From an uncultured Acidobacteriota bacterium (lineage in GTDB: Bacteria; Acidobacteriota; Blastocatellia; RBC074): a stretch of 64,000 bases of DNA. The notes below the pieces were generated by a model. That model saw only the letters and a program-made list of their open reading frames with translations. It made no database searches and had not been told where the DNA came from. Each line of letters opens with the position of its first letter. Position 1 is the stretch's first letter. Below, piece by piece: positions 3,706 to 53,941 of the stretch. The DNA is taken from positions 32,150 through 96,149 of the forward strand of contig CAVUPU010000001.1 in assembly GCA_963743425.1 (NCBI GenBank), read 5' to 3'. The position numbers and the translations under genes are program-made.

Positions 3706-4236
3706 ATGAAGTGCGGGCGATGCGGGGGCAAGACGATAATCAAAAGAGGTGACTATAAGTACGTCGAAAGCGGTCTTGATAATGTGTACCTCAAGAATAT
3801 CGAGTTGCGCGTTTGCGAGTCCTGCAACGCTGTGACGCCCCGCATCAGTCGGATAAACGAATTGCATGCCATTATTGGACGCGCCATCGCTTTGAAGACT
3901 GAGCCCTTGTCCGGGGCTGAAGCCAGGTATTTGCGCAAGCATCTCGGCCTTAGGGGGAGAGAGTGGGCCTCGTTGTTGCACGTAGACGTGGCGACACTTT
4001 CGCGCTGGGAGGGAGAGCAACAGGAAATCGGCTCGCAATCAGATCTCTTGATGCGGGCATTCTATTTCATCGTGCTTGCCGAGCGACAAGGGAAGCCGTT
4101 GCCGGAGCGCATTATGGAGAGAATTGCAGCCATCGCTCAGCGCGAAGAAGACGAACTAGCGGTGATCATCAATCCGGAGAATCCGCCATCATACCTGTAT
4201 CGCCCGCAATCCGAGATGGTGGCCGCTTCCTGTTAG
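3706..4236 (+). CDS. type II antitoxin, MqsA/YgiT family (N-terminal CxxC...CxxC zinc ribbon plus XRE HTH)
   Basis: MKCGRCGGKT...CESCNAV zinc-ribbon, then GAEARYLRKHLGLRGREWASLLHVDVATLSRWE HTH. RBS AAGGAGG at 3693-3699. Confidence 0.75.
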   Translation: MKCGRCGGKTIIKRGDYKYVESGLDNVYLKNIELRVCESCNAVTPRISRINELHAIIGRAIALKTEPLSGAEARYLRKHLGLRGREWASLLHVDVATLSRWEGEQQEIGSQSDLLMRAFYFIVLAERQGKPLPERIMERIAAIAQREEDELAVIINPENPPSYLYRPQSEMVAASC

Positions 4237-4564
4237 CCTTATCAGCTTGTGTGTATCGAAAGCCTGCCAGTATCGCTTGGCGGGCTTTTTCATATTCTAC
4301 GCCGCGCTCGACCTGCTGTGGGATTGGGACGAAAAAGTAGTGACACTACGCCTAATTGGCTAATACCGTCTGAAGCGTACAGAACGTGCGCTAATCCCAT
4401 TCCCATTATCAAGTTAATGATCTATTTTCCTAATCTGTTAATGTAGATTGCTCTGGCCTTGGATAGTTCTTCTCGTGGCCAATGGTGAATTCATTTCCTG
4501 ACCTACTAACTCCAAACTATTTAAAGATCAAAACGGCAAACTTGAAATTTTTTCGACAAGATTC

Positions 4565-4593
4565 TTGACAATAGAAGACTCAGGTTTTATATT
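4565..4593 (+). promoter_or_regulatory. sigma70-like promoter of hsp20 (TTGACA-17 nt-TATATT)
   Basis: -35 TTGACA at 4565-4570, -10 TATATT at 4588-4593 with a 17-nt spacer, about 110 nt upstream of the hsp20 ATG. Confidence 0.5.
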
Positions 4594-4596
4594 GCG

Positions 4597-4621
4597 TCTG
4601 TCCTCAAGGCTTGAGGACAGA
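4597..4621. promoter_or_regulatory. perfect palindrome TCTGTCCTCAAGG/CTTGAGGACAGA just downstream of the -10; candidate repressor operator of hsp20
   Basis: 25-bp perfect inverted repeat overlapping the predicted transcription start. It contains CTTGAGG/CCTCAAG half-sites. It resembles HspR HAIR half-sites (CTTGAGT) only loosely, with a different arrangement. It is not CIRCE. Confidence 0.45.
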
Positions 4622-4701
4622 TACAATGGAATCAGGCAAAGAGTAAGGAAAGTGAGAACGATCAACCATAACCAACGTGACTAACAAGGAGGAATTAGTG
4701 T

Positions 4702-5187
4702 ATGTCATGGATGATCAAACGTGATCCGTTTAGCGAATTGCGAAACATTCAGGAGGATTTCAATCGAATCTTCAGTTCGACATTGCCACGGTTTTTCAGT
4801 GGCGAGGAAGGTTTGTTAGGCGGGAATTGGGCGCCGAACGTGGACATTTACGAGGACCAGAACTCGATCACGCTCGAAGCCGACCTGCCGGGGCTGAAGC
4901 CGGGCGATTTCAATCTTTCCATTGAAAACTACAGGCTCACTCTGAGTGGCGAGCGCAAGTACGATAAGGAGAAGAAAGGCGACAACTGGCGCCGGGTCGA
5001 GCGCAGCTACGGCAGCTTCACCCGCGCGTTCAGCCTGCCTTCGACGGTCAACGTCGACGCGGTTAACGCCGAGTTCAAAGACGGCGTGCTGCGCGTGACG
5101 CTGCCGAAGAAGGAGGAGGTCAAGGCCCGCCAGATTCAGGTGACAAGCGCCGACGCGAAGGGCGCGAAGGCGGCCGAAGCCAAATAA
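4702..5187 (+). CDS. Hsp20/alpha-crystallin family small heat-shock protein
   Basis: ACD-like sequence ([25 protein letters not shown]...GVLRVTLPK). RBS AAGGAGG 9 nt upstream of the ATG. Confidence 0.9.
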
Positions 5188-5200
5188 TCAGCGTCCATAA

Positions 5201-5317
5201 CCGCCAAGACGCCAAGGACGCCAAGGACGCCAAGAAAAAGCGAGATGAAAGGGTGAAGGGCCAATTCCTTTATCTTTTATCTTTTATCTTTTCTTGGCGA
5301 TCTTGGCGTCTTGGCGG
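5201..5317. repeat. inverted tandem-repeat array: (CGCCAAGR)x4 ... (CTTTTAT)x3 ... (CTTGGCG)x3, between hsp20 and clpB
   Basis: Direct reading. Left arm CGCCAAGA CGCCAAGGA CGCCAAGGA CGCCAAG. Right arm CTTGGCGAT CTTGGCGT CTTGGCGG, the reverse complement of the left. The listed clpB ORF (5253) starts artifactually inside it. Confidence 0.8.
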
Positions 5318-5333
5318 TTTACACGAGGAAGAG

Positions 5334-7928
<2,595 letters not shown>

Positions 7929-7931
<3 letters not shown>

Positions 7932-8075
7932 GGATTGCGGATTGCGGATTGCGGATTTATTGATTCCGAGAATCCTGTTTTCACTGCGTCGCCTCTTGCG
8001 CGAGATAGACCAATGACTATCAATCCGCAATCCGCAATCCGCAATCCGCAATCCGCAATCCGCAATCCGCAATCC
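7929..8075. repeat. inverted heptamer arrays (GGATTGC)x3 ... (CAATCCG)x7, between clpB and grpE
   Basis: Direct reading. The left arm is at 7932-7957 and the right arm at about 8021-8075, separated by roughly 60 nt. The arms differ in copy number. Confidence 0.8.
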
Positions 8076-8119
8076 GCAATCCCACTCCCGTTCATTGCAA
8101 CATCCTTATTGCGATGATA

Positions 8120-8135
8120 GATTGACCTGACCATC
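8120..8135. promoter_or_regulatory. short perfect palindrome TGACCATCCGTGGTCA upstream of grpE
   Basis: 6-4-6 inverted repeat that overlaps the GTG start of the listed 8137 ORF. It may be an operator, or it may be incidental. Confidence 0.25.
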
Positions 8136-8181
8136 CGTGGTCATCAAGCTTGGCGATAATGAAAGGTTTTTACGTAGTGTT

Positions 8182-8913
8182 ATGAATTCCAATTTGGGTA
8201 ATCAGGAGCAGGGTCACAGCGCGGCCGAAGCGCATGAAGCCGAGACTCAGCCCACGGAGAGAACGACGGATCAGGGAGTCGAACCGGAATTGATAATGAC
8301 TGATAAACGCCGTGTCACGCCTGATGGGGAGGCCATCGAGCGCGAGCAGGATTTTCAGAAGGACTTGACGACCGAGCAGGTCGAAGCCCCATCCGAGGTC
8401 GAACAACTTCGAGCAAGATTGAAAGAGGTCGACGAGAAGCGCATCGAGGCCGAACGTCAGGTGCGCGATTTCGCGGATCGCTTCCGCCACGCGCAGGCGC
8501 AATTGAGGGCCGAGACCGACGAGCAGCGCGCTCGTCTGCAACGGACTTTCGACCAGAAGCTGGAAGCTGCGCGCGGTGATATTGTGGCAGGGCTGCTCGA
8601 TACTCTGGACAATCTCAAGCGCGCGGTCGCGGCGGCTGAAAAGAGCGACAATAAGAATTCCGACTTCATTGCGCTGTTGGATGGCGTGCGCGCCACGGCC
8701 AATATGTTCGAAGCCAAGATGCAGAGCCTGGGGTTGAGCGCGGTGCCCTCCACGGGAGAAGATTTCGACCCCGAAGTTCACGAAGCGGTGGAAATAGTCC
8801 CGGTTGCGAAAGACGAAGACAACCGGGTGATCGAAGAGTTCCAAACAGGATACAGGTTCGGCTCCCGCCTGCTGCGTCCGGCGCGCGTGCGCGTGGGCCG
8901 GGCGAATGAATAG
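8182..8913 (+). CDS. grpE: GrpE nucleotide exchange factor (start uncertain; candidates GTG 8137, ATG 8182, ATG 8296)
   Basis: Coiled-coil region followed by a GrpE C-terminal domain (...VEIVPVAKDEDNRVIEEFQTGYRFGSRLLRPARVRV). No dnaK or dnaJ nearby. Confidence 0.8.
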   Translation: MNSNLGNQEQGHSAAEAHEAETQPTERTTDQGVEPELIMTDKRRVTPDGEAIEREQDFQKDLTTEQVEAPSEVEQLRARLKEVDEKRIEAERQVRDFADRFRHAQAQLRAETDEQRARLQRTFDQKLEAARGDIVAGLLDTLDNLKRAVAAAEKSDNKNSDFIALLDGVRATANMFEAKMQSLGLSAVPSTGEDFDPEVHEAVEIVPVAKDEDNRVIEEFQTGYRFGSRLLRPARVRVGRANE

Positions 8914-8933
8914 CAAAGTGGATGAATGATAGA

Positions 8934-8989
8934 TGAATGGGACTTATAGGACTTATAGGACCTCCTATAAGTCCTATAAGTCCCATTCA
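8934..8989. repeat. 56-bp perfect palindrome (TGAATGGGACTTATAGGACTTATAGGAC|CTCCTATAAGTCCTATAAGTCCCATTCA) upstream of groEL
   Basis: Direct reading. Each arm carries a tandem 10-mer GACTTATAGG x2. It is preceded by GATGAATG x2. It is not a CIRCE element. Confidence 0.85.
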
Positions 8990-8992
8990 TGA

Positions 8993-10624
<1,632 letters not shown>

Positions 10625-10820
10625 GGCGCCTTGACATGACGATGACGCTCCGATAGCTTAGACACTCTGAGATCAATTCTCTCGAAGTTTTCCGGCGCCG
10701 CGGAGAAAAATGGGCGCCGGAACTGGGGCGTGGAAGTCAGCCTGATCAATTTAAGATAAGAGCAGACGTCGGCCCATCAAGCCGTGATTTGAAGAAGTAT
10801 CTAAATTGGAGTGAAAGACC

Positions 10821-13082
<2,262 letters not shown>

Positions 13083-13252
13083 TTTTGGAAATAAACGTAT
13101 TGGTTTTGCAAGAGGGTTCCGACTGATGATTGTTGGAACCCTTTCCGTTTTCATGAACCTTATGGCGGTTAGCAAATGCGTTTAAGGGACGGCAAGCGGT
13201 ACAGTACCGAAGGTCGCGCCACTTTCTATCGGTCCCGGGTTTTAGATCACCT

Positions 13253-14428
<1,176 letters not shown>

Positions 14429-15832: not shown

Positions 15833-15902
15833 GTACAGTACCGCGCGTAAGCAAGCGGTTACCTGCGGGTCAGCCGCTTGCTTACACACGCGGTACTGTA
15901 CC
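15833..15902. repeat. GTAC-terminated perfect hairpin element (GTACAGTACCGCGCGTAAGC...GCTTACACACGCGGTACTGTACC) flanked by ~20-bp direct repeats
   Basis: Direct reading. The flanks CTTTCGTGTTGCGATGTACAG and CTTTCGTGTTGGGATGTGACA match at 19 of 21 positions. It belongs to a hairpin family seen at five other loci in the window. Confidence 0.8.
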
Positions 15903-15976
15903 AAGCTTTCGTGTTGGGATGTGACAAACGAACGCAGCCATCTTCGCATCGCGACAGGCTTCTAGCAAGAAAAGAT

Positions 15977-16090
15977 AGGTGTCAGGTGTCAGGTGTCAGG
16001 TGTCAGGTGTCAGGTGTCAGTAAAAGAATGACTACATGGATTCCTACTTGAAAACCTGAAACCTGAAACCTGAAACCTGAAACCTGACAC
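15977..16090. repeat. inverted heptamer arrays (GTGTCAG)x5 ... (CCTGAAA)x4-CCTGACAC abutting the ADOP stop codon
   Basis: Direct reading. On the ADOP coding strand, the stop TAG is followed directly by GTGTCAG (GTTTCAG)x4, about 35 nt of spacer, then (CTGACAC)x5. Confidence 0.85.
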
Positions 16091-18529
16091 CTATTCACAT
16101 CTGAGAGCGACCATCGGATCGACCTTCGCCGCGCGCCGGGCGGGAAGATAGCAGGCGATCAACACCACCAGCCCTAACAGCAGCGTCACGCTGGCGAACG
16201 TTACGATGTCGGTGGCGCTCACACCGTAGAGCACGCTCGACATCAGCCTCGTCAAAACCAGCGCGCCCGCCAGGCCTATCGCCAGCCCAGTGAGCGCCAG
16301 CCACATTCCCTGCTTCACGACAAGCCTCATAACGTCGCTCGACTCAGCGCCGAGCGCCATCCTTACGCCGATCTCGCGAGTCCGCTGGCTGGCGGCATAG
16401 GCCATCACGCCGTAAATGCCCAGCCCCGCGAGCAGAAGCGCCAGCAGCGCGAAACTGCCCGCCACCCACGCGCCCGCCTGCAGCGGGAGGAGCGAAAACC
16501 GCATGTGCTCGCTCATCGTCTTGACATCGTAAAGGGGCAGGTTCGCGTCGAGCCGCTCCACCTCGCGCCGAATCGTGTTGATTATGCTCTGCGGTTCGAC
16601 GCCGGTGTGGACGACGAGAGACATGTTTTCGTCGTACTCTCGCGCTATCGGGTAATAGACGAATGGCTGCGGGTCTTCGCCGAGAGTCCAGTACTTGCCG
16701 TCTTTCACGACGCCGACGACCTCGAAGCGCGGGTTGTCAGGTCCGCCTCGGCTCAGGCGCTTGCCGATTGGATTCTGCCCAGGCCAGAAGCGTCGCGCGA
16801 AAGTTTCGTTGACGATCACGACGCGCGACTCCTCTTTGTCCTCCTGCATCGTGAAATCGCGTCCTTCGAGCAATGGAATACCCATCGTCTCGAAATAACG
16901 CGGCCAGACAAGGCCGTATTGCACAGTGGGCAAATCGGAAGCGCGTGTGAACGGCTGGCCTTCGGCATAAATAATGCCGCCATTGAAATCAAGATTGAGT
17001 GGCAGAGAGTCAAGGTATGAGGCGGCGCGCACGCCTGGCAGCGATTCGACGCTCGTAATGAGTTGCTTGTAGAACTCGCGCCCGCGCGCCTCGTCATAGC
17101 CTTGCAGGCCCAGGTCAACCGACATCGTGATCCTGTTTTCGACCTCGAATCCCGGCCCGATCATTTGTACCTGTTGCAGACTGCGCACGATCAGCCCGGC
17201 GGCAATGAGCAAAAGAAGCGAAAGCGCCACCTGCGCGACGACCAATCCGTTGCGGAAACGCGAACGACGATAACCGCCAAGGCCGGCTTCATCCTTCAAT
17301 GCCGGGATCAGATCAACCTTGCTCGACTGCAGAGCCGGCGCCAGGCCGAAGAGCGCGCCGGTAATGAACGAAACGATCAGCGTGAAGGCCATCACGCGCC
17401 AATCGGGTCGCAGATCGATCAAGAGATTGAAATCTACCGGCGGCTTGAAGGCCGCGACCAGATCGATCATCCAGAGCGCGACCAACCAGCCCACGACTCC
17501 GCCGGCGAGCGATAGCGCCACGCTTTCAGTGAGCAACTGCCGTACGATTCTCAAACGCCCCGCGCCGAGCGACAAACGTATGGCGATTTCCCTGCGCCGC
17601 TGAGCCGCTCTCGCCAGCGACAAATTGGCCAGGTTCACGCAGGCGATCAGCAACACCAGCCCCACAGTCGCCATCAACACTCCCGCGAATCCCAATGTCC
17701 CATAACGGATTAACGGAACCGCCAGACCGGGCGGAGTGACGCTGAACGTCGTTTCACCGAGGCCCTGGTCCTCGCGCGCAAACTGCGCCAGCAACAGGGT
17801 GAGCGATTCACGCGCCTGTGTCGCGGTCACGCCCCGTTTCAGGCGACCAAACGCGAGGATCCCGCCGTTACCGCGATTTTCAAACCAACTCGATTCTCCC
17901 GGCGCGATTTGCTTCACCATCATCATTGGCGTGTAGAAATCCGGCTCGAAGATCAACACCGTTCCGCGAAACTCTTCGGGCGCGACGCCGATGATCGTGA
18001 AGTCGTGGCCATTGAGCTTGATCGTCTTGCCTACCAGGTTCGGATCGCCGCCGAAGCGACGCTGCCAACAGCCGTAGCTCACAACCGCGAGAGGATGCGC
18101 GCCCGGGACACGGTCTTCTTCCTGCGTGAACATTCGGCCTTTGAAGGCGCGCACGCCGAGCGTATCAAAATAATTACCCGAAGCCAGATAGCCAAAGACG
18201 CGCTCATTGACGCCGTTCTGACTCAGATTCATCGGCACAGGGATATATGCCGCCAGCCCGTCAAAGACTTCGTTCTTGTCGCGAAAATCTTTGTAGGTAG
18301 GATAAGAGTAAGCCCCGATGCTGGCGTCCTTCCTCAACGGAGTGACTTCGACGATCCGCTCCGGCTCCGCAATGGGCAGCGGCCGAAGCGCCACCGTGTT
18401 GACCAAACTGAAAATGGCTGTGTTCGCGCCGATTCCCAGGCCGAGCGTGATGATGGCGATTAATGTAAAGCCAGGCTTCCTCAACAACGTTCGCGCGCCG
18501 TAGCGCAGGTCTTGAAATAAAGTGTTCAT
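16091..18529 (-). CDS. ADOP-family ABC transporter permease (MacB-like, two FtsX modules with large periplasmic domains)
   Basis: N-terminal leader [22 protein letters not shown]. About 810 aa. Ends MVALRCE. The start was moved to ATG 18529, which has RBS GGAGGAAGG. Confidence 0.85.
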
Positions 18530-19908: not shown

Positions 19909-19924
19909 AATTCCTCCAAGAGAA

Positions 19925-20015
19925 GATGCCAGATGCTGGATGTCAGATGTCAGTGAGAGAGCATTGCCGCCACTCTTCTACCAACATCGAACATCTGACA
20001 TCTGATATCTGACAT
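19925..20015. repeat. inverted heptamer arrays (GATGYYR)x4 ... (ACATCTG / ATATCTG)x4 abutting the ADOP stop codon
   Basis: Direct reading. The coding-strand stop TAG is followed by ATGTCAG ATATCAG ATGTCAG ATGTTCG... The units resemble the terminal codons of the ADOP gene (...AGATGCGAATAG). Confidence 0.8.
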
Positions 20016-22514
20016 CTATTCGCATCTGAGCGCGATCATCGGATCCACCTTCGTCGCCCGTCGCGCCGGAACGAGCGCGGCGAGCAACGCTACTCCCACC
20101 AGCAACAACGCGACACCGGCAAAAGTCGCCGGATCGGTGGCGCTCACGCCGAAGAGCAGGCTCGCGAGCAGCCGCGTCAACAACAACGAGCCGATGACGC
20201 CGATCGTCGCGCCGGCGGCGATCAGCATTCCGCCCTGCCCCATCACCAGCCTCAGAACGTCTCCGGCCGTCGCGCCTAAAGCCATCCTGACGCCGATCTC
20301 CTTTGTCCGCTCTGCGACCGCGTAAGCCATCACGCCGTAGACGCCCATCACAGCGAGGGCGAGCGCGACGGCGGCGAAGACCGAGAAGATGACCAGGCTG
20401 AAGCGGCGTTGGTCGAGCGAGGAGGAGAAGATTTGTTGAATCGTGCGGAAACTGACAGGCAATTCCGGGTTGAGCGCGCGCGTCGTCCGGCTCATAGCGG
20501 CAGTGAGCGTCGCCGGGTCGGCCTGCGCCCGCACGACGATTGAGATCTGCGAAAGCGGTGGGCGCTGGAGCGCATTGCCATAGACCGTCGGCTGCGCGTC
20601 AGCATCCAGTCCGTCGGCGCGCACATCGCCGACGACGCCGACAATGTGCAACAGGCGCAGATCAGTGTCCATGTTCCCGAACTGAATGCGCTTGCCTATC
20701 GGGTCTTCATTCGGCCAGTACTTCCGGGCGAGCGACTGGCTGATGACCGCTACGTGTTGGCCTTCGAGCCTGTCGCCCTCGTCGAAGACGCGGCCCTTCA
20801 CAAGCGGGATACCCGCCGCGGCGAAGTAGCCCACGCTCGCAACGCGGTAATCGGCGTAGCCTATCTTCGCCGGGTTATTGTCAATCCAGAATGTTCCGTC
20901 GCCGCGATCGCCGTCCATTGGCACGCCGTTGACGCCGCCGATCGCGACGACGCCGGGCAGGTTTCTGAGACCGTCGAGCAACTGCCGATAAAACAGCGTC
21001 TGCCGCCACCGATACTCTACATATTCGTCCGGCTCGGGCAGGCTCTCCGGCATGCCGCCTCCCTCCATCATCCGCTCGAAGGCTCGCACGACTTGCTGTT
21101 CGTGCCGTCCGCGATCCGGGCCGGTGTAATCCGGCAATGACAGATCCATAACGATGGCGCTCTCGGCGCGGAAGCCGGGATCAACCTGAAGCAGCCGGTA
21201 AAAACTCTTGCCGAGCAGCCCCGCCCCCGTCAGCAGCGCGAGCGTCAAAGCCACCTGCGCCACGACGAGCGCGCTCCGCAGCCGGTTGCTCGTAGCTTGC
21301 CCCGCCTGGCCGCGCCCGCCGTCCTTCAGGTTGTCGTGCAGTTCGTTTTGCGAGAGTCGCGCGACCGGCGCGAGGCCGAGCGCGACCGCGATGAACAACG
21401 CGAGGCCGAGCGTAAAACCGAGCGCCCGCATGTCCACTCCGATCTCATCTGCGCGCGGCACACTGCCAGGATTCAATCCGATTAGCAGGTCCACGCCCCA
21501 GAGCGCAAATAGCGCGCCGAGCGCCCCGGCGATCAGAGCCAGCAGCGCATTCTCCGTCACGAACTGCGCCGCAAGTCTCCGCCTCGTCGCCCCGAGCGCA
21601 GCGCGCACGGCAAGCTCTTTCTGCCGCGCCGTCATTTGCGCGAGCAACAGGTTCGCCACGTTCGCGCAAGCCACCATCAACAGAAATCCGACGGCGGCGA
21701 GGACGATCAGCAACAGGTTCTTCGTGTCGCCGACTATGAACTCGTGGATCGGGATCGCGGCAATGTCCACGGCGTCTACGTCCTTGCCGTGTTCCTGCTT
21801 GATCTGCCTGGCGATGGCGCTCAGGTCGGAGCGGGCCTGCTCGATCGTTACGCCGCTCTTGAGCCGCGCAAACACGCTCCAGTTGTGCGCCGAGCGTGAG
21901 GTCTCTGGCGGAAGTAGCTCGCGCGGCGCCCACACATCGAATCCCTGTGGGAAACTGAAGCCCGGCGGCATCACGCCGACCACATCGAAGACCCGATCGC
22001 TGATCAGCAGTCTCACTCCGGCCAGATCAGCGCGCCCGCCGAGTCCCCTCTGCCAGAAGCCGTGGCTGACTACGGCTATCTGCTTGCCGCCGTCTTTAGC
22101 ATCTTCAGGCAGGAACGCTCGACCGGCGAGCGGCGCGACACCCAACACGCGGAAGAAATCATTCGTCGCGAAGAGTACTCGCGCACGCAACGGCTCGCTG
22201 CCGCCCGTTACCGTCTCCATCCCACCGGCGTACTCGGCGACGGCTTCGAGGCTGCGGTTGCGCTTGCGCACATCGCGGAAGTTCGGGTCGGTGAAGGCCA
22301 CCGGGCGGCCCTTCTCGTTCACCTCGCGCATCTGCACGACACGGTCAGCCCCAGGATAAGGCAGCGAACGTAGCAGCGCCGCGTCCACGATGCTGAAGAT
22401 GGCCGTGCAGGCGCCAATGCCCAGCGCCAATGTCAGTACGGCGATCGAGGTAAAGCCGGGCTTCTTCAGCAACATTCGCGCGCCGTAGCGCAGGTCTTGT
22501 AAGAGTGTTTGCAT
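20016..22514 (-). CDS. ADOP-family ABC transporter permease (MacB-like)
   Basis: [22 protein letters not shown] leader. 832 aa. Ends MIALRCE. Confidence 0.85.
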
Positions 22515-23139: not shown

Positions 23140-23427
23140 ATGCAACAACCTATCTGGAACTTCGAGCAGAAACCGACGGATGAGCAGTTGGATGAAACCG
23201 GCGTCAATCTGCGCGCCTATTTCGACCGAATGGATGATGAGAAGATGCGGCAGTACGATCCGCCCTGGAGCGACGAACAGGTCGTCGAGTGGGACGGCAA
23301 CTTCCGCGACGACGGAAATCTGATGATGTTTTGCTGTGAACGCGATGTCGAGGTGGATGAATACCGTCGCGTGCTGGAAGAATGCATTGAGTATCGCAAC
23401 AGGGTCAGGGAAAAACTGCTCGGTTGA
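23140..23427 (+). CDS. hypothetical acidic protein
   Basis: ORF with coding-like composition. A start at the internal Met (MQQPIWNF) is the more plausible one. No motifs. Confidence 0.35.
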
Positions 23428-23432
23428 GATCT

Positions 23433-23531
23433 CATTTTCCATTTTCCATTTTAGATTTGTCATTTGTCATTGACTGAGAGGAACTGAGCGCAATGACAAA
23501 TGACAAATCTAAAATGGAAAATGGAAAATGG
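23433..23531. repeat. hairpin element built from heptamer repeats (CCATTTT)x3, (GTCATTT)x2, a 20-nt loop, then (AATGACA)x2, (AAATGGA)x3
   Basis: Direct reading. It has perfect 33-bp arms and lies between convergent genes. It shares motifs with the element at 54886-54996. Confidence 0.8.
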
Positions 23532-23558
23532 TTTGTGGTCGCAGATCCTTTTCGCTCA

Positions 23559-24590: not shown

Positions 24591-24607
24591 GAGGCTATTG
24601 AAGATCG

Positions 24608-24700
24608 CCCCTGGGTACGCATCGCTTCCAGCGTGCGAGGCTCCGATCAAAGACCGAGTAATGGAAGCCTCGCACGCTGGAAGCGATGCGTACCCAGGGG
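24608..24700. repeat. GTAC-type perfect hairpin (34-bp arms CCCCTGGGTACGCATCGCTTCCAGCGTGCGAGGC, 25-nt loop)
   Basis: Direct reading. It sits between two co-directional genes. Confidence 0.8.
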
Positions 24701-24703
24701 ATT

Positions 24704-25252
24704 TTATGACTTCGGCTTTTTGATCGCGCCTTCGACCGGGCTTTTCGCCCCCTCGGCGTATTTCGCGCCAATCAGCGCGTAGGTCTTCTCCGCGCGCAGT
24801 TTCAGTTGTTCAAGACCTTTCTGAAAATCCTCTTCCTTGAAATTCTCGTCACAGAACGCGCAGCAGCTTTCAAAAGTCAGACCGAGCCGCTTCCACTGCA
24901 GCATCCCGCCGGGCGCGACCTGATCGGTCACCGGGCACCAGATCACGCTCATCGCGCGCATGAAGTTGTTGATGAATCGTTGGCGCTCAGCCGCTTTGGC
25001 GTATTTGTCCGGGTCTTTCAAAAACTTCTCCTGCGCGTCCGCCTTACTCCCGCGATAGGTCACGCCTTTGTAATCCCATATGGGCAGCTTCGGATCGGAT
25101 GGTTCCAGATAGACCGGGCAGAGATCTACAGATTTCTGCGCTTCGGAGATTTTGACCTTCTCGAGCGTCACCGCGTCGGCGGGTAGTTGGGCGAAAGCGG
25201 CGCCCGCCGTCGCAAGGAGTATGAAAACTATCAATGCCAATCGTCGCAACAT
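24704..25252 (-). CDS. secreted hypothetical protein (possible accessory subunit of the redox cluster)
   Basis: Signal peptide MLRRLALIVFILLATAGAAFA. Conserved Cys residues (CPV, WCPV, CCAFC). No assignable domain. Confidence 0.5.
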   Translation of the reverse strand: MLRRLALIVFILLATAGAAFAQLPADAVTLEKVKISEAQKSVDLCPVYLEPSDPKLPIWDYKGVTYRGSKADAQEKFLKDPDKYAKAAERQRFINNFMRAMSVIWCPVTDQVAPGGMLQWKRLGLTFESCCAFCDENFKEEDFQKGLEQLKLRAEKTYALIGAKYAEGAKSPVEGAIKKPKS

Positions 25253-27309: not shown

Positions 27310-28733
27310 TATCCTCTCTTCAGGTCTTCATTGAGCGAGTTCAAGAACGCGACAAGCGGAGCGATCTCCGCCGCGCCGATCCTGATCTTCGCCAACTCCT
27401 CATCGCCTTCGCGGACGCGACCCGCGCGGGCCATATCGCTTAAACGAATTATCTCTCCCAAAGTTTCTTCCAGCGTTTGAATAGAGCCGTTGTGAAAATA
27501 GGGATGCGTGTAAGCCAGATTGCGCAGCGTTGGCGTTTTGAACGTGGCGATCATCCTTCGCAGGAAAATGTCATCACTCTCTCCGGCGCGGCGCAGCGGC
27601 GATGTTTTCAGATCAACGAAATTCCAGAAGCCCAGGTCAGTCTCGCCCGGCTTCTCCTTCGACGGATTTTCGCGGAACTGCGCCGACGGGCGGCGCGCCG
27701 ACGCGGCGTCAGGAATCGCCAGCGCCGCGAATTTGCCTTCGCCACCATCACTATGGACGCGATCGTAATCAACCTGGCTGACACCCTTGTTGTGAAATGA
27801 AAAATCGGTGAAGAGCGGCGGCGTATGGCAGGTCGCGCAATTGCCAGCTTTCGTGTCGAAGAATATCTTCAGCCCTTTGAGCGCCGCCGCGTTGAAATCC
27901 CTCGTGAGCTTGATCGCGCCTTTCGACTCGATCGAATCGATCCCGGCCAGCAGCCGTCGCGCGAAGGCGTTGCCGTCTTCGCCCGGCGCGGGTTTGCTCT
28001 CCAACCGGTTGGCTTCGATGAATTTGTCGTAGGGAGAATCTTTGCGCGTGTTGAGCGTGCGGATGAAGCCGGCCAGGGCTTTGGCTATCAGTTCGACTAC
28101 TTCGTCGCGGCCGAGTTTTTCAACGTCAACGTTGAACGCCGCTTTGAACTGATTTCGATACGACTCCGCGCCGTCGTCATTCGATATGACGGCGCGCGCG
28201 CGTTCGAAGGCCTGGGCCTCTTCGCCCGGCAGCCATCCCATCGGACGCCCCGAGATGGTGCCTCTGACCAGTTCTTCCAGCGAGCCGAATTCGCCGTCGT
28301 GATGCAGCCGGGGCATTTCAGCCACGTCGAAGATCGTCGGCGAATTTCGCAACCCGAGCCGGCGGCGGTCCTGCGCGCGCGACGAGACCCAGCTTCGGTT
28401 GAAGAAATCGGCGTAGGCGCGCAAGCCCTGCGGGTCCTGGTTGAACAGATGGCAATTGCTGCAACTCGCGGGCAGGTCTCCCTCGGGAGTCGAGAACCGG
28501 TCGTCGTTGAACAAACGCTCGCCTAGATGGATTACGGCTGATCTTTCCTGTTTCTGTTGAGATTGGCCGAGCGCGGGTCGAGTGAGATCGCCTGTTAAGC
28601 GTGAAAGCGCCAGACAAAAAAATGTCAGACAGAAAAACAGGAAGCGGGGAATGGGGAATGGGGAATGGGGAATGGGGGGCTTTTCCTCTGTTCCCACTCC
28701 CCACTCCCCACTCCCCGTCTTTCTGTCTGACAT
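27306..28733 (-). CDS. di-heme cytochrome c peroxidase (CCP/MauG family)
   Basis: Two CxxCH motifs (CSNCH, CATCH) with CCP-like spacing. It overlaps the PQQ-DH start by 4 bp. Its N-terminal region is encoded through the repeat array at 28609-28749, so the start is uncertain (28733 or 28754). Confidence 0.8.
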
Positions 28734-31587: not shown

Positions 31588-32988
31588 CTACTTATTCGAA
31601 GCGGTCTGTGTCTGTCCCTGCGCGCGCAGGTTCTGACTGTCAATCGTGTAATCCATCCATCCGATCATCATCTCTTCCCAGGTCTGGTCGCCCCAGCGGA
31701 CGGTGATGGTCGGGTCGGGATTGAATTTGTTGGCGGCTGAATTGTCGTGGTGCGCCAGGCATTCGATGCGACTGCCTTTGGGAACGGCGATCGGCTCTTT
31801 GACGAAGTAATTCAATTGCCAGTTGAAATCGTACTTCGGAACGCGCAGCAGAATCTTCTCCTTGCCGTCGGGGTAAACCAGCTTGTACTCGAAATCCTTG
31901 CCCCGGACGTGCATATGCGGCATGAAAGAGTGGATGTGCGCGTCTTCGGTGAAGGTGAGTGACGAGCGCGATTCGAAGTTCGCATCCCCCGGCGGGATCT
32001 CCAGTTTGCGCGGATCGGTCGAGACGCCCCTGGTGATGACGCGCTTTTCGATCGGCTCTTTGGCGAACCAGAATCCCACGCTGGTGCGATCTTTGGCCGC
32101 GACGCCGTTGGTCGTGTAATGCATCTGGAAGATCAGAACCGAGCCTTTCTTGACGAGCTTGGCCTGGCCGGGCTTGAGCGTGAGCGGACTCATTCCCGGC
32201 GCCCAGCCGACGATCATGCGGTCGGGATTCATACCGCGAGGCCGGTTGTTCTGCGCCTGCTGCGGATCGCGCGCGGCTTCGGGATTGACCCGCTGCTGAT
32301 CCCTCCTGATCTCGCCAGCGGGTGGAAGCGGGCCCTGGTCAGGCTCGCGCACGCTGACTATGACATGATGCACGACGCTCGGCTCGCCGCGTTTGATCTG
32401 GGCGAATTGAATGTATTTGTCTTCGGTGAAGTTGGTCGGGACGGCCCAATAACGGTACGGCACCGTGCCGTCGGCGGGGATCGATGCCTCTTCGGTCAAT
32501 GAGAAGACTGCGTCGGGCTGGCCGAATTTCCATCCAACGTCATTGAATTTCGGCGCCGGAGGCAAATCCTTCGCGTCGCCCTCCTTCGATCCGCCGTCAA
32601 CCCAGGCGCGGATCGTTGCGATCTGCTGCTCGGTCAATCGCGGATCGTTGAGGAATTCACCATGATTCGGATCGGCGTACCAGGGTGGCATCTCCCGGCT
32701 TATGACTCTTTCGCGGATCGATTTGGCCCACGGGCGGACATCTTTGTACGCTAGAAGCGACATCGGCGCCATCTCGCCGGGGCGGTGGCAGGTGGCGCAT
32801 TTGTCGTGAAGAATCGGCGCGACATCTTTATTGAATGTCACAACCGCGTTGCTCGTTCCGCTCGCGTCGCCCTGTCGTTGTGATACGAAGAAGGCCACGA
32901 GCGCTAAAGCGAGGACCATGCAAATAGCGGCGTTGCGTCTCATAAACTCATCCCTCCGATACATCCACGAAGTCACGCGAAGAAACAC
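31588..32988 (-). CDS. monoheme cytochrome c domain fused to a large domain with a His/Met arrangement like PHM/DBH copper monooxygenases
   Basis: N-terminal [12 protein letters not shown]...MPPWYADP (PSCyt-like). Downstream are [19 protein letters not shown] and MMIGWM, which recall the CuH/CuM ligand sets of copper type II monooxygenases. This is an inference. Confidence 0.55.
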
Positions 32989-33221
32989 GAAGAAAAAAGG
33001 GAAAATCTTCGCGCCCCTTCGTGTGACTTAGTGGATGGTTTTCATCTTGTCGAAAGCCACCGTTCGCGAATGCGAATCGGGCGACGCGGGTTCTGTTTTG
33101 AAATACGATTGGACCGGAGCTTTTGTTACGACTCTTCTGAAATCAAGACGATAAAAACCGACGGCTGGTCACTTCCATTTCATCGCCGGTCAGACCGGAA
33201 TTACCCATTCCGATCAACCGG

Positions 33222-43685: not shown

Positions 43686-46130
43686 ATGCGAGTTATACTG
43701 CTTTTCCTGTTTTTACCTTTCGGTCCGCTTGTCGCGGCGCAGGATGCGCCTTTGCCCACGCCTTTAAAAGACGGCGCGAAACCTTCCGTCGGGAAGCGCG
43801 AGGTCGCGCTGCCGCCCGAGAAGGCGACGCCAGTTCGCATCGCACGCTTCGCCTCGGCGCCAACGATTGATGGCCGGCTCGATGATGCGGTTTGGAAGGA
43901 GGCCGCCGTCCTCAAGGATTTCTACCAGGTCGAGCCCGGCGACAACATCGCCCCATCTAAACCCTGCGAGGTTCTGCTCGGCTATGACGCCAGGCATTTT
44001 TATATCGGATTTCGCGCGCCCGACGAGCCGGGCCAAGTGCGCGCGACCGTGGCCAAACGCGATCAAATCTGGGAAGACGACAGGGTCGGCGTCTATCTGG
44101 ACACGTTCAACGACCGGCGACGGGCCTATGCGCTCTTCTTCAACCCGCTCGGCGTGCAAGCCGATGGCGTCCTCACTGAAGGCAGGGGAGAGGATTACAG
44201 CATTGACATCGTGATGGAATCGAAGGGCGTGGTTACGGACGAAGGCTACACGGTCGAGGTCGCCATCCCGTTCAAATCGCTGCGCTACGAGGCGGGCAAG
44301 GGGAAGCTGTGGGGCGCGCATTTCATACGCCAGATCAAACGGCTCAACAACGAGGTGAATTCGTGGATGCCGATCTCGCGCGATAAATCCGGCAGGCTCA
44401 ACCAGACCGGACATCTGACCGGCCTGGAAGATATCTCCACCGAGCGCACGCTCGAACTGATTCCGAGCCTGGCGCTCTCGGAAACCGGCAGGCGTGTGCG
44501 GGCGCTTCCTCTCGCGCCGCCCGATGTTCCAACGCCACTCGATCCCGGCCGCCTGGTCAATCAACCAGTGCAACTCGATCCCGGATTGACGATGAAGTTC
44601 TCTCTGACGCCGGCCATCACGCTCGACGCCGCGATCAATCCCGACTTCGCGCAGGTCGAAGCCGACCAGACGGTGGTCACGGCCAACCAACGCTTCCCGA
44701 TATTTTTTGAAGAGAAGCGGCCATTCTTTTTTGAAGGCGCGGATATTTTTCAAACGCGGCTGCAAGCCATCCACACGCGTTCGATTGTTGATCCCGATTA
44801 CGCGCTCAAGCTGACGGGGCGTCGCGGGCGCAACACTTTCGGGATGCTGCTGGCTTCGGACAACGCGCCAGGCAATTTCAGCGAGGACGAACGTCGTGAT
44901 CCGAACAACGAGAAGTTTCTGGACAAGAACGCTTACGTCGGCATCCTGCGCCTCAAGCGCGACATCGGCAGTGAATCGAACATCGGATTGATCGCCACCA
45001 GCTACAACTTCATCGAGAAGCGCAACCAGTTGGGAGGCTTTGATGGCCGGTTCCGGCTCGATCCTAAGACGACCTTCAGCTTTGAGGTCCTCGGCTCGCA
45101 TTCGCGGAAAATCTTCTTCGATCCGGATCAGGGAAAAGACCTCTACCGGACAGGCAATGGGTTTGGTTACGACTTGAACCTGGATATGTCGGGACGGCAT
45201 TTCGGCTATTTTCTTTTCTCGACAGGCAGGACACGGGATTACCGCGCGGACCTCGGTTTCACGCGCCGTACCAACACCAACCAATCGGGCTTGTTTGCCC
45301 GCTACAATTCCGAGCCGAAGCCGAAAGCCAAGCTCATCTCCTGGCGTGTGTCCCAATTCAGCGGCGCGAATTACGACTTCCAGGGGCGGTTGCAGAGTTG
45401 GAACATCGAGCCTTCCGCCGGATTGCAGTTCAAACGCCAGACTTTTTGGGGCTTCGGTAGCTTCGCGGGTTATGAACGAATCTTTGAAGAAGAGTTCGGA
45501 GCGAAGCGCGCGGTAGACCGTCCGGGAGCTTTCTCCGGCCCCGACCCCGAGCGTTCGACTTATAACAAAGGGCTCTTCAGTTTCATCGAAATGGAACCAA
45601 GCAAGAAATTTTCGATCTTCATGTTCGGCGTCTATCGCTGGAACGAATTCGATTTCGACTTCGGCGCGGGCAAACGATATCCGCGAGTCAGCCCTGCGGC
45701 TCTCGCCGACCCCGACGCCCCGCTCGATCCCGGTCCCGGAACCGGGATGACTGTGGAAGGGAATTTCATTTACAAGCCGACCGCTGCGCTGCGGCTTTCG
45801 CTCAACTATACGAAGAGCCGTTTGCGGCGCAATGACACTGGGCGCGTGGCCTTCAACGATAACATCTATTCGTGGCGGACGACCTATCAATTCACGCGGT
45901 TCCTGTTCGCGCGGGCAAGAGTTGATTACTCCACATTGAGATCGAATGTTAGCGGACAGTTCCTGCTCGGATGGGCGCCGAATCCGGGCACGTCATTCTA
46001 CGTCGGCTACAACGACGATCTGACTCGCAACGGACACAGCCCGTTCACCGGCCAATTCGAACCCGGCTTCAGGCGCAACGGCCGCACATTCTTCATCAAA
46101 ATGTCCTACCTCATCCGGCGCAGCTTTTGA
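43686..46130 (+). CDS. DUF5916/CBM9-like domain outer-membrane protein
   Basis: Signal peptide. TIDGRLDDAVWKEAAVLKDFYQVEP (CBM9-like). Long beta-rich C-terminus ending in ...IRRSF with a terminal Phe. Confidence 0.6.
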   Translation: MRVILLFLFLPFGPLVAAQDAPLPTPLKDGAKPSVGKREVALPPEKATPVRIARFASAPTIDGRLDDAVWKEAAVLKDFYQVEPGDNIAPSKPCEVLLGYDARHFYIGFRAPDEPGQVRATVAKRDQIWEDDRVGVYLDTFNDRRRAYALFFNPLGVQADGVLTEGRGEDYSIDIVMESKGVVTDEGYTVEVAIPFKSLRYEAGKGKLWGAHFIRQIKRLNNEVNSWMPISRDKSGRLNQTGHLTGLEDISTERTLELIPSLALSETGRRVRALPLAPPDVPTPLDPGRLVNQPVQLDPGLTMKFSLTPAITLDAAINPDFAQVEADQTVVTANQRFPIFFEEKRPFFFEGADIFQTRLQAIHTRSIVDPDYALKLTGRRGRNTFGMLLASDNAPGNFSEDERRDPNNEKFLDKNAYVGILRLKRDIGSESNIGLIATSYNFIEKRNQLGGFDGRFRLDPKTTFSFEVLGSHSRKIFFDPDQGKDLYRTGNGFGYDLNLDMSGRHFGYFLFSTGRTRDYRADLGFTRRTNTNQSGLFARYNSEPKPKAKLISWRVSQFSGANYDFQGRLQSWNIEPSAGLQFKRQTFWGFGSFAGYERIFEEEFGAKRAVDRPGAFSGPDPERSTYNKGLFSFIEMEPSKKFSIFMFGVYRWNEFDFDFGAGKRYPRVSPAALADPDAPLDPGPGTGMTVEGNFIYKPTAALRLSLNYTKSRLRRNDTGRVAFNDNIYSWRTTYQFTRFLFARARVDYSTLRSNVSGQFLLGWAPNPGTSFYVGYNDDLTRNGHSPFTGQFEPGFRRNGRTFFIKMSYLIRRSF

Positions 46131-46132
46131 GC

Positions 46133-46211
46133 CAGTACCGCGAGCGGTAGCGAGCGAGGCTGCCCGAGTAATCATTAGCGGGAGCCTCGCTCGCTACCGC
46201 TCGCGGTACTG
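46133..46211. terminator. GTAC-type perfect hairpin (CCAGTACCGCGAGCGGTAGCGAGCGAGGCTCCCGC...) between convergent genes; probable bidirectional terminator
   Basis: Direct reading. No U-tract. Confidence 0.6.
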
Positions 46212-46212
46212 A

Positions 46213-48150
46213 TTAGGGACGAGAAGGTTTAGCGAACCGGGCGTCGTCAATCTCCGCGTTGGTCTTCACCTCGGTGATTTTGATGATCGTCTCGCCCACC
46301 GGCGTCTTTTGCGTCCATTGAAACGCGGTCTTCACGCCGTCAACCTCGCGGTAATCCGTGTAGAGAGTCTCGGTGGGAATTTTTCCCTGTGGCCCTTCAT
46401 CAACCGCATCGGCGCGCAGCAGCAGAAACGTCGCGGCGTCATAATATCTGGTCACGGATGTCCCATCCTTGCCCGTCAGTCGAATGACGTAAGCATCCCG
46501 CTCGCCGACTTTCTCCCTTCCCGTCAGTTCCGCCTTGATAAACAACTCGCGCCACTTCAGTTCGGGATTGAAAACGGATTGGTATTTGATCTTTTCCAAT
46601 TCATCGCCTTCGAGCGTGCGCAGCCCCTGATACGGGTCCTGGATCCATCCGGTTTTGCCATCGAAGCCCTGTTTGATCACGCCGACTTTATCGATGGTTG
46701 TGACAGTCAGCAGCTTGTCCGGCGCTTTGCCGCAGACTTCGAGAGCGCCTTGAACGTTTCGCCCCTGCATTTCGAGAGTCGCTTTGAGGCAATAGCTTGC
46801 GCCCTTCTCAATCGCCTTGCGCCCGCCGATGGCTGCGATGTTCTTCTCCAAAATCTCTTCAGCCGTGATCTGTTGTCGTTGCGCTTGAATCATCGAAACG
46901 GCTTTTTCGATGACCGGGTCGCGCCCCGCGAGCAAATCGCGGCGTGTGATTTCAACGGGCGCGTCGGGCTGCGCGCCACGGCCTTCGAGGACGAAACCTT
47001 TGGGCGTGCGGTATTCCCCAATGGCGTATTGCAGTCGAGCGCCGGTCGGGAGCTTTTCAATCACGGACGGCAGCGCCGCGCCGATGGTTGGACGCCCGAC
47101 GATCTTCGCCTTGCCATTCTCCTGCATTGCGGCGGCGAAGGTTTCAGCGGCGCTCAATGTGCCTTCGTCAGTGAGGATGACCAGCGGGCCGGTGTAGACT
47201 TCGGGGCTGGGAAAGACCGGGCGGTAGAGTTCGCCATGTCGCAGTCTGGTTACGCCCAGCGAGGAGCGCTCGGTGTAGAACAACCCGGCCATCGCTGTTG
47301 TTACTGGGATCTCGCCGCCGGAGGCGCCTCGCAGATCGAGGATGATTCCGGGCGCGTCCTGAAAGGACTTCACCGCCTGGCGAAGCTGATCCAGCATCGG
47401 CAGGAGAAACAGGTTGAAGCGTAGATAGCCGATTGCGCCCGCGAGGCGTCCGGTCTCGATCCGGCCGAGAGGAGTCGGGAGATCGCCAAACTTGATGACC
47501 TGGCCATCGGGCATTCGGCGGACCAGAGTCGTCGCGCGAGGCGCGTCATTCTCGTCCAGATAACGCAGGCTAACGGTTGTCCCGGCTTCTCCCCGCAAGC
47601 GCGACCGTGTAGCCCGCAATAACAGTGATTGTTCCATGACCGGGCGCTCTTTGCGGGCTGCGATCTTCCGCTGCAAATCGTCCAGCGATTCGGCGTCGAT
47701 GTGCGTGACAATGAAGCCCGGACGGAGTCCGGCGGCGAATGCGGTTGAATCGCGTTCCACTCTTGTGATTGTCGGGCGACCTTCGATCATCTGCGCCGTG
47801 ACGCCCACTTCCGCGCGTGATGATTTGCCGTCGCCTTTCTCGTCAAGCGCGAAGAAAGACGGCGGGATGACTGCGAAGTGCGATTGCTTCAACTCGCCCA
47901 GCATGGCGTTGAGCAGTTTGTAGAATTCATCGTCGCTTCCCGCATCCGCGACGCGCGGCGCGTACCGCCGGCGCACGGCCTCCCAATCCACGCCGTTGAG
48001 TTTCGGGTCAAAGTGCTTCTGCTTCACCGTGCCCCACACGATTTCAAAGGTCTGCCGCCGCAGTTCGACGATTGGCTGCTGCGCAAGCGCAACCTGAGCG
48101 AACAGCGCCAGCGTGGCGAATGCGTGAAGAAATCTGTCATGAATTTTCAT
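46213..48150 (-). CDS. S41-family peptidase (C-terminal processing/tricorn-core-like) with a C-terminal extra domain, secreted
   Basis: Signal peptide. PDZ-like region. DLRGASGGE catalytic Ser motif region. Confidence 0.75.
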   Translation of the reverse strand: MKIHDRFLHAFATLALFAQVALAQQPIVELRRQTFEIVWGTVKQKHFDPKLNGVDWEAVRRRYAPRVADAGSDDEFYKLLNAMLGELKQSHFAVIPPSFFALDEKGDGKSSRAEVGVTAQMIEGRPTITRVERDSTAFAAGLRPGFIVTHIDAESLDDLQRKIAARKERPVMEQSLLLRATRSRLRGEAGTTVSLRYLDENDAPRATTLVRRMPDGQVIKFGDLPTPLGRIETGRLAGAIGYLRFNLFLLPMLDQLRQAVKSFQDAPGIILDLRGASGGEIPVTTAMAGLFYTERSSLGVTRLRHGELYRPVFPSPEVYTGPLVILTDEGTLSAAETFAAAMQENGKAKIVGRPTIGAALPSVIEKLPTGARLQYAIGEYRTPKGFVLEGRGAQPDAPVEITRRDLLAGRDPVIEKAVSMIQAQRQQITAEEILEKNIAAIGGRKAIEKGASYCLKATLEMQGRNVQGALEVCGKAPDKLLTVTTIDKVGVIKQGFDGKTGWIQDPYQGLRTLEGDELEKIKYQSVFNPELKWRELFIKAELTGREKVGERDAYVIRLTGKDGTSVTRYYDAATFLLLRADAVDEGPQGKIPTETLYTDYREVDGVKTAFQWTQKTPVGETIIKITEVKTNAEIDDARFAKPSRP

Positions 48151-49257: not shown

Positions 49258-49650
49258 ATGACCCGACGTAAAACCGAGCGACTGACTCCCCTGGAGCTTG
49301 AAATCATGCAAGTCCTCTGGGAAACGGGCGCAGCCAATGTGCAGACCGTACAGCAGCAGCTCAAACGGGAATTGGCTTACACCACAGTGCAGACCATGCT
49401 CAACATCCTGCACCGCAAGGGGAAGGTCAAACGCGCGCTGAAAGACCGCGCTTATTTCTACAGGCCGGCTGTCAGCCGCAAGCAGGTTGTCAGACATGCC
49501 GTCAACGACCTGGTTGAGCATCTCTTCGGAGGTTCGGTGGAAAGTCTGGTGATGAGCCTGGTGGAAACCAGGCATCTCACTCCCGAGAAAATGAACCGGC
49601 TGAATACGCTCTTGAAAGAGGCCGAGGAGGAGAGCGATGCGGACAATTAG
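49258..49650 (+). CDS. BlaI/MecI/CopY-family winged-helix repressor
   Basis: LTPLELEIMQVLWETGAANVQTV...TVQTMLNILHRKG. 130 aa. Overlaps the downstream M56 gene. Confidence 0.85.
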   Translation: MTRRKTERLTPLELEIMQVLWETGAANVQTVQQQLKRELAYTTVQTMLNILHRKGKVKRALKDRAYFYRPAVSRKQVVRHAVNDLVEHLFGGSVESLVMSLVETRHLTPEKMNRLNTLLKEAEEESDADN

Positions 49651-53850: not shown

Positions 53851-53941
53851 TGGTACAGTACGGGGAGCGTAAGCGACCTGAGCCCCGGTCAATAGGCCCA
53901 TTGATCGGGGCTCAGGTCGCTTATGCTCCCCGTACTGTACC
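53851..53941. repeat. GTAC-type perfect hairpin (GGTACAGTACGGGGAGCGTAAGCGACCTGAGCCCCG...) in a divergent promoter region
   Basis: Direct reading. It shares GTACAGTAC...GCGTAAGC with the element at 15833. Confidence 0.8.

Follow-up and report, generated by a model that had tools for sequence, protein, structure and literature searches.

A dispersed palindromic repeat family at the grpE-groEL junction of a Blastocatellia bacterium

The heat-shock gene cluster and its palindrome

The window analysed here, a 64,000-nucleotide stretch of DNA from an uncultured Acidobacteriota bacterium, carries a same-strand heat-shock cluster that was assigned with Pfam and comprises hsp20, clpB, grpE, groEL and a clpA/C-like gene. 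By the relatives of its GrpE the window belongs to Blastocatellia, in the phylum Acidobacteriota, with which the ADOP permease genes it carries agree. The gene order grpE-groEL is kept in 9 of the 9 closest genome hits. The genes of the cluster, its putative promoters and the palindrome between grpE and groEL are the following:

4565-4593, + strand: putative hsp20 promoter TTGACA-17-TATATT, overlapping a HAIR-like CTTGACA-N7-ACTCAGG (4564-4584)
4591-4627, + strand: inverted repeat after the putative hsp20 promoter, with a CCTCAAG-g-CTTGAGG core
4702-5187, cluster strand: hsp20 (Pfam)
5253-7931, cluster strand: clpB (Pfam)
8095-8123, + strand: promoter-like block upstream of grpE, TTGCAA-17-TAGATT preceded by TG, the only match of at least 8/12 in the clpB-grpE spacer
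8182-8913 (alternative start 8137), + strand: grpE (Pfam GrpE; 243 aa from ATG 8182, homologues 243 aa)
8921-8939, + strand: directly duplicated terminus at the left border of the palindrome, GATGAATG twice, 11 nt apart
8933-8990, no strand assigned: palindromic element with arms of 28 nt each, a CC centre and the termini ATGAATGGGAC and GTCCCATTCAT
8940-8961, + strand: left-arm tandem 9-mer GGACTTATA, 2.4 copies (Tandem Repeats Finder, period 9, 100% matches)
8963-8983, + strand: right-arm tandem 9-mer TCCTATAAG, 2.3 copies (Tandem Repeats Finder), the reverse complement of the left unit
9017-10624, + strand: groEL (Pfam; Cpn60, 535 aa, GTG start), with no groES upstream
10821-13082, cluster strand: clpA/C-like gene (Pfam)

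The palindrome lies directly upstream of groEL, as the original prediction held, starting 19 nt past the grpE stop (8913) and ending 26 nt ahead of the groEL GTG (9017). It is also the AT-rich element in a GC-rich background that had been described: its GC content is 38%, against ~58% in the surrounding region. Its geometry needed some correction. What had been read as a perfect 28+28 repeat without a loop at 8934-8989 is indeed a long and perfect inverted repeat, but the central C:C (C8961 and C8962) is unpaired, and that interval is one base short at each end. The element consists of 27+27 nt around CC, extended by one base at each end that forms an A:T pair, so that arms 8933-8960 and 8963-8990 are 100% complementary and the total length is 58 bp. 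The internal tandem unit, taken for a 10-mer, has 9 nt and is present in 2.4 copies of GGACTTATA and 2.3 of its complement. The 13-mer core does not occur in the window outside the element, which makes this the single copy of the unit there.

The calculated folding energy of the palindrome is -51.1 kcal/mol as RNA (z = -9.1) and -28.1 kcal/mol as DNA (z = -11.9). None of 200 shuffles was equally stable in either case, so the structure is real and chance is excluded. The predicted RNA contains a perfect 27-bp helix; RNase III substrates are characterized by at least ~20 bp of uninterrupted double-stranded RNA within a transcript. A mini-ORF within the palindrome (ATG 8933 to TGA 8992, 19 codons) is probably coincidental, since its frame and stop are lost in other copies of the element (L088, L128).

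An RNA thermometer of the ROSE or fourU type, whose structure would mask the Shine-Dalgarno sequence or start codon until it opened at heat-shock temperature, was considered and rejected: the Shine-Dalgarno-like GGAAAGGA (9003-9010) and the GTG start of groEL are outside the hairpin, which ends at 8990, and a hairpin of -51 kcal/mol is much too stable to open. In the predicted minimum-energy fold, the GTG at 9017 is left unpaired. A small stem, UUUCC-AGA-GGAAA (8995-9007), overlaps the groEL Shine-Dalgarno region and is also predicted in L140, L143 and L144; as a modelled structure that might modulate translation, it is a weak candidate.

The palindrome had been proposed as a groEL control element in the place normally taken by CIRCE. 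Such operators are arranged in the order promoter, operator, chaperone gene, and are conserved in sequence; the palindrome shows neither property, its sequence being unconserved among orthologous spacers. The CIRCE consensus (TTAGCACTC-N9-GAGTGCTAA) has no match with up to 3 mismatches in the whole window and is unrelated to the sequence of the palindrome, which also lacks half-sites of HAIR (CTTGAGT-N7-ACTCAAG). Scanning of 8500-9017 detected no sigma-70-like promoter, neither in the final 500 nt of grpE nor in the grpE-groEL spacer. A sigma-32-type promoter reading of GTCCCATTCAT was rejected by eye, as no CTTGAAA is found at the proper distance. The intrinsic-terminator scan did not call the palindrome either: canonical Rho-independent terminators have a G+C-rich stem, a loop of 3-8 nt and a U-tract after it, and the palindrome has 38% GC, a stem of 27-28 bp and a 3' tail, GACAUUUCC, without a U-tract. 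A search of 4000-14000 against Rfam at a permissive E-value returned sub-threshold matches alone, to generic long hairpins (a plant miRNA precursor, an HIV stem-loop), which are meaningless. The tested features exclude a CIRCE/HrcA or HAIR/HspR operator, a canonical terminator and an RNA thermometer, and annotating the palindrome as a chaperonin operator is unwarranted.

The places to seek heat-shock control in this cluster are the HAIR-like hsp20 promoter and the promoter-like block upstream of grpE. The former contains the best conserved HAIR match in the window (4564-4584) and has a CTTGAAA box upstream of it; the whole block (4541-4627) is kept in 9 of 9 Blastocatellia relatives and is therefore likely to be a real heat-shock control region, possibly of the HspR type. 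The grpE block is followed by a TGACC..GGTCA inverted repeat (region 8095-8145) and has stayed conserved in relatives with GrpE identities as low as 58%; directly upstream of it, the repeat hairpin is hypervariable. Its conservation makes it the likely origin of the transcript that would carry the palindrome: since the grpE 3' end and the spacer hold no promoter-like site and this block is conserved, we infer that groEL is co-transcribed with grpE.

Dispersal and turnover of the repeat family

Searches of metagenome contigs returned at least 120 that contain the exact 20-mer core of the palindrome. In low-GC contigs the matches are coding (GLIGLIG signal/transmembrane segments or collagen-like repeats) and were set aside, and in contigs of 55-65% GC the 20-mer is non-coding and occurs as direct arrays or hairpins. 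About 35 of the non-coding sites among the matches listed are true hairpins, many with the termini of the window's palindrome; self-complementary TATAGG/CCTATA direct arrays were left out of this count. The family has the structure ATGAATRGGAC-(TTATAGGAC)n...(GTCCTATAA)n-GTCCYATTCAT and element sizes of 58-115 bp. As in MITEs, terminal inverted repeats, here (C)ATGAATRGGAC / GTCCYATTCAT(G), are common to copies at unrelated loci. The element also has the properties of SSR/STRR-type repeats, which are non-coding head-to-tail arrays of 5-11 nt units: a period of 9, 2.4 copies per arm, a varying copy number and recurrence of GGACTTATA in at least 120 contigs. The copy on L088 is almost identical to that in the window.

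The genes adjoining the copies (GH57, NAGidase/SIS, DUF4331/TPR, FtsK/PrfB, MacB, arginase/Ddl) are unrelated to chaperones, and none of the 20-mer contigs listed holds a grpE-groEL locus. The Ddl protein beside one copy is closest to Blastocatellales and Blastocatellia proteins. Dispersal within one contig was seen once among the matches listed, as two copies 4.5 kb apart on L081. No consistent direct repeat indicative of target-site duplication was found around the inspected copies, whose palindromic ends make it hard to judge. The idea of a dedicated groEL element, which occurrence of the palindrome at many unrelated loci had been said to refute, does not survive these results: by its sequence, the palindrome is one copy of a dispersed repeat family rather than a dedicated groEL switch.

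In L145 (1696-1760), grpE is followed by the left arm only (AATGAATAGGACTTATAGGACTTATAG) and then by unrelated DNA without groEL, and the region upstream of grpE is non-syntenic. This is either a rearrangement broken at the palindrome centre or an assembly chimera.

At the orthologous grpE-groEL junctions, a strong hairpin (z between -4 and -14) is present in 13 of 15 spacers and is weak in those of L008 and L009. The repeat units that form it differ and include GGACTTATA variants, GGATCGA/CCACGAAG, CAGTTCG and AGGTGTT. Close relatives keep GGACTTATA-type units, in 2-5 copies and with different loops. L002 has GGATCGA heptamers in a CCACGAAG stem, though it falls inside the GGACTTATA clade in a rough neighbour-joining tree, and the spacers of L005, L006 and L007 contain other repeat families. 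In both L002 and L005 the GGACTTATA element is replaced by a family with ATCCACGAAG...CTTCGTGGAT stems. The only parts of the grpE-groEL spacer conserved among relatives are TAGCAAA and the GAAAGGAYAACAAGTG ribosome-binding site. The more distant L006 and L007 have in common one more small conserved hairpin between the two genes, with GACGCCCTGAAACAAT as its end; the window's clade lacks it.

The two arms change together. In a hand-anchored alignment of the outer 24 pairs of the orthologous grpE-groEL hairpins, 7 pairs have both partners changed and pairing holds in 99.2% of cells, a result reached by 0 of 500 shuffles (slid controls, 0-1). Variant units are matched across the arms (GGATTTATA with TATAAATCC, GGACGTATA with TATACGTCC, GAACTTATA with TATAAGTTC), and in L001 and L003 an insertion of 1 nt in one arm has its counterpart in the other. 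Unequal arms also occur, both in L004 and in the clpB-grpE spacer of the window (3.7 vs 8.9 units).

The junction between arginase and ddl is empty in L148 and L149, contains another, REP-like element in L150-L153 and has a GGACTTATA hairpin in L088, L095 and L128. Filled and empty orthologous sites, as known for MITEs, are thus present at this junction, and the grpE-groEL spacer of L002 represents a family swap. The filled, empty and swapped junctions indicate that elements are gained, lost and exchanged while the pairing of their arms is kept. Because the element is absent or weak at some orthologous junctions, any function it has must be dispensable there.

The window contains many other long intergenic hairpins, several of which have short tandem-repeat arms of differing units:

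5200-5316, + strand: hsp20-clpB spacer element, GACGCCAAG x3.8 opposed by CTTGGCG arrays, with TTTATCT x3.4 in the loop; other units in relatives
7910-8100, + strand: clpB-grpE spacer element, GGGAATG and GGATTGC x3.7 on the left, CAATCCG x8.9 on the right; other units in relatives
15975-16094: hairpin with AGGTGTC units
19924-20017: hairpin with CAGATGT units
23427-23536: hairpin with CATTTTC and ATTTGTC units
28645-28717: hairpin with GGGGAAT units, in G-rich arrays
58063-58153: hairpin with CACGGAT units

The dominant period of the tandem repeats elsewhere is 7, and the units GGATCGA, CAGATGT, GGATTGC, GGGCAGT, GGATAGT and GGGGAGT are common to the window and other contigs.

Several further repeats were observed. 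The 3' end of the clpB ORF enters a GGGAATG heptamer array (7910-7934) with the clpB stop codon inside the repeats, and relatives have other units here, so variable repeats specify the final residues of ClpB. The hsp20-clpB spacers of L004, L005, L006 and L009 share, 3' of hsp20, a conserved, canonical terminator-like hairpin, GGCTTCGGGYTGAAAARCYCGRAGCC, with a T-run behind it; at this place the window and its closest relatives have repeat hairpins only. A GC-rich, REP-like palindrome with TACGCATCGCTTCCAGCGTGCG is found in the window (24604-24704) and at the arginase-ddl junction of L150-L153, near 2962, and a second GC-rich family (GTACAGTACCGCG...) in the window at 15833-15901, 46130-46214, 53852-53941 and near 13200. 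The ATCCACGAAG...CTTCGTGGAT family, which has CACGAAG-like units, is dispersed as well (window 32962-33037; L004 1168-1216; grpE-groEL spacers of L002 and L005). A 54-nt tandem repeat (2.6 copies, 91% matches; 50913-51055) lies inside the ORF 49637-51337.

Turnover of this kind could be that of a selfish or neutral by-product without function, produced by slippage together with intrastrand template switching (quasi-palindrome correction), or by transposition or gene conversion. The elements would then be merely tolerated past stop codons, and the perfection of the arms would reflect a mutational mechanism instead of selection. The presence, absence or replacement of elements at orthologous junctions, at some of which they are dispensable, fits such an origin, as do the unstable copy numbers, the unequal arms and the indels mirrored in both arms. 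The dominance of heptamers does too, being expected of slippage-prone units (Mrazek 2007, as summarised in PMC4679880). However, a hairpin persists at grpE-groEL in 13 of 15 relatives even where its sequence has been replaced, and local slippage alone does not account for the conserved ATGAATRGGAC termini.

Position and strand preference of the hairpins

The 20-mer hairpins fill tight spacers, and among the matches listed 20 of the ~26 with both flanking genes called lie between co-directional genes. The wider class was surveyed in 634 kb of related contigs by counting hairpins whose arms measure 14 nt or more, with the spacers picked by the search pattern left out. With the crude gene calls used for metagenome contigs (longest ORFs, filtered by third-position GC content), hairpins are present in 33% of the spacers between co-directional genes, in 46% of those between convergent genes and in 17% of those between divergent genes (Fisher p = 0.011). 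The median distance is 11 nt from the stop codon to the hairpin and 32 nt from the hairpin to the next start. This is the position known for REP/BIME elements, which are short dispersed extragenic palindromes near gene 3' ends. It also bears on the by-product explanation, as the enrichment at gene 3'-end spacers over divergent ones speaks against it.

The palindrome had alternatively been proposed to be a grpE terminator or an RNA-processing site. Either role is plausible, but only as a feature common to the genome-wide class of stop-proximal hairpins; a canonical intrinsic terminator is not, given the absence of a U-tract. A U-tract-less ('I-shaped') terminator or attenuator of grpE would leave groEL to be expressed by read-through or from an unrecognised promoter. 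The palindrome is suitably placed, 19 nt past the grpE stop, and very stable; the canonical hairpin and T-run in the hsp20-clpB spacer of distant relatives puts repeat hairpins in terminator-like positions; the grpE-groEL hairpin of L007 is followed by TTTTTT; and inverted repeats past stop codons are generally ascribed to termination (PMC13155455). However, only 4% of the hairpins have a T-rich tail (5 T or more among the first 8 nt 3' of the stem); the palindrome's own tail, GACAUUUCC, has no U-tract, and the terminator scan did not call it. Furthermore, a strong stop 26 nt ahead of a promoter-less groEL would shut off a major chaperonin, and the cluster does have a canonical terminator with a T tail elsewhere, 3' of the clpA/C-like gene (13111-13144; terminator scan). 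We regard termination of this type as very unlikely. The literature on terminators and inverted repeats that we examined contains no Acidobacteria-specific data.

Imperfect hairpins show a strand preference. Their mismatches, read on the sense strand, are G:T in 93 cases vs A:C in 62 (p = 0.016), and in 49 hairpins the sense RNA has the more stable fold, against 35 with the reverse (p = 0.045), the difference being large in L140, L004 and L002. This provides modest evidence that the sense RNA is the relevant form of the hairpin. A transcription-associated C-to-T mutation bias could generate the sense-strand G:U excess without selection, and a mutational asymmetry of this sort would suit the elements as by-products; the pairing of imperfect copies mainly via sense-strand G:U, as in L140, is otherwise a point against them being such. 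Weighing this with the evidence from turnover and position, we find a purely selfish or neutral origin rather unlikely.

The strand preference also bears on the possibility that the palindrome acts as DNA, whether as a cruciform, as a site for a repeat-binding, nucleoid-associated or topoisomerase-type protein, or as a groEL-specific heat-shock operator. A perfect 28-bp palindrome with a 2-nt centre could, in principle, extrude as a cruciform under negative supercoiling, and its units are periodic. However, periods of 7 and 9 bp keep no constant helical phase, and a cruciform would not favour the better pairing of imperfect copies as sense RNA than as the opposite strand. The sequence is unconserved at grpE-groEL and present at unrelated genes, and the element contains no CIRCE or HAIR; conserved operator-like motifs are found upstream of hsp20 and grpE instead. 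The dispersal of the family to unrelated genes refutes the operator version, and action at the DNA level as a whole appears highly improbable.

A repeat hairpin in a probable grpE-groEL transcript and its relation to known elements

We think it probable that the palindrome is a dispersed REP/MITE-like repeat within the grpE-groEL mRNA, with a generic post-transcriptional effect, and that it is not a heat-shock operator. It belongs to a family that evolves rapidly in Blastocatellia, with conserved termini (ATGAATRGGAC...GTCCYATTCAT) and arms of variable-number tandem 9-mers (TTATAGGAC), and this family is in turn part of a wider class of hairpins with tandem 7-/9-mer arms, located in short spacers just past stop codons. 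The grpE-groEL transcript probably starts at the promoter-like block upstream of grpE and carries the element, which as RNA would form a hairpin of ~27 bp and leave the groEL ribosome-binding site free. By analogy with REP and Correia/ERIC elements, such a hairpin may be a barrier that protects the grpE segment from 3'-to-5' exonucleases, a processing site for a double-strand-specific (RNase III-type) enzyme, or a leaky, partial attenuator that would let the grpE and groEL parts of the transcript fare differently.

REP/BIME elements of enterobacteria and pseudomonads are short dispersed extragenic palindromes, typically found 3' of a stop codon, either where an operon ends or between genes transcribed together. 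Folded in the mRNA, they act as 3'-exonuclease barriers or weak attenuators, and they form lineage-specific families. REPs are imperfect palindromes of 20-40 nt with a GTAG-type head and are linked to RAYT transposases, and BIMEs bind IHF and gyrase. The palindrome family resembles them in being short, extragenic, dispersed and near gene 3' ends, but its ATGAATRGGAC termini lack GTAG and its arms are tandem repeats of variable copy number. The Correia/NEMIS elements of Neisseria, ERIC and RUP carry inverted repeats at their termini, and an orthologous intergenic site may be filled in one genome and empty in another; they are transcribed together with the genes beside them and give long RNA hairpins that are cut by RNase III or RNase E, which alters mRNA stability. 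Conserved terminal inverted repeats and filled and empty sites are shared by the palindrome family, whereas its body consists of tandem 9-mers instead of unique sequence and its 58-115 bp are at the small end of the range. CIRCE/HrcA and HAIR/HspR operators are short conserved inverted repeats with a fixed spacer of 9 or 7 nt, located between promoter and gene. Like them, the palindrome is an inverted repeat upstream of a chaperone gene; unlike them, it matches neither consensus, is unconserved and has no promoter.

The STRR heptamers of cyanobacteria were reportedly described by Mazel in 1990 and by Jackman and Mulligan in 1995. The closest described repeats are the intergenic heptamers GGGAATC of Xanthomonas and GGGGA(C/T)T of Nostoc (Rehm et al. 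2015, PMC4692102). These favour co-directional ORFs, at distances of ~50 bp or less from the stop codon, and are under-represented where ORFs diverge; some form pairs called 'tandemly inverted repeats', most are transcribed, and their length and sequence vary widely at one locus between close relatives (PMC4692102). The TAACTGA repeats of Beggiatoaceae are a further example (PMC4679880). After such heptamers, REP and MITE families show the greatest resemblance. The repeats studied here are likewise intergenic tandem units near stops, and the window even has G-rich GGGGAAT arrays. Unlike the Xanthomonas and Nostoc heptamers, the arrays are usually inverted pairs that give long, near-perfect hairpins, and many units coexist; the palindrome itself differs in its 9-mer unit without G-quadruplex potential, its conserved non-repeat termini and its Acidobacteriota host. 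Our search of a library of open-access papers found no report of the palindrome's repeat sequence or of heptamer/STRR-type repeats in Acidobacteriota.

A bolder interpretation is that Blastocatellia have an as yet undescribed system of interchangeable 'repeat-hairpin cassettes', which a dedicated mechanism actively generates, copies or swaps and which serve as the main U-tract-independent transcript-end or processing signals. A limited vocabulary of 7-/9-nt units may be used in it, in inverted arrays with defined termini at stop-codon-proximal sites. We consider this distinctly unlikely.

The palindrome is thus ordinary with regard to groEL control, and moderately interesting as a member of a repeat class that has not been described, from a phylum, Acidobacteriota, that is abundant in soil and little studied. 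If hairpins with tandem 7-/9-mer arms do follow about a third to half of the genes, with hardly ever a U-tract, they will escape terminator predictors trained on model bacteria, and short-read assemblies may break or form chimeras at them. Hairpins that common would also provide a natural system for studying how palindromes keep their arms matched during sequence turnover.
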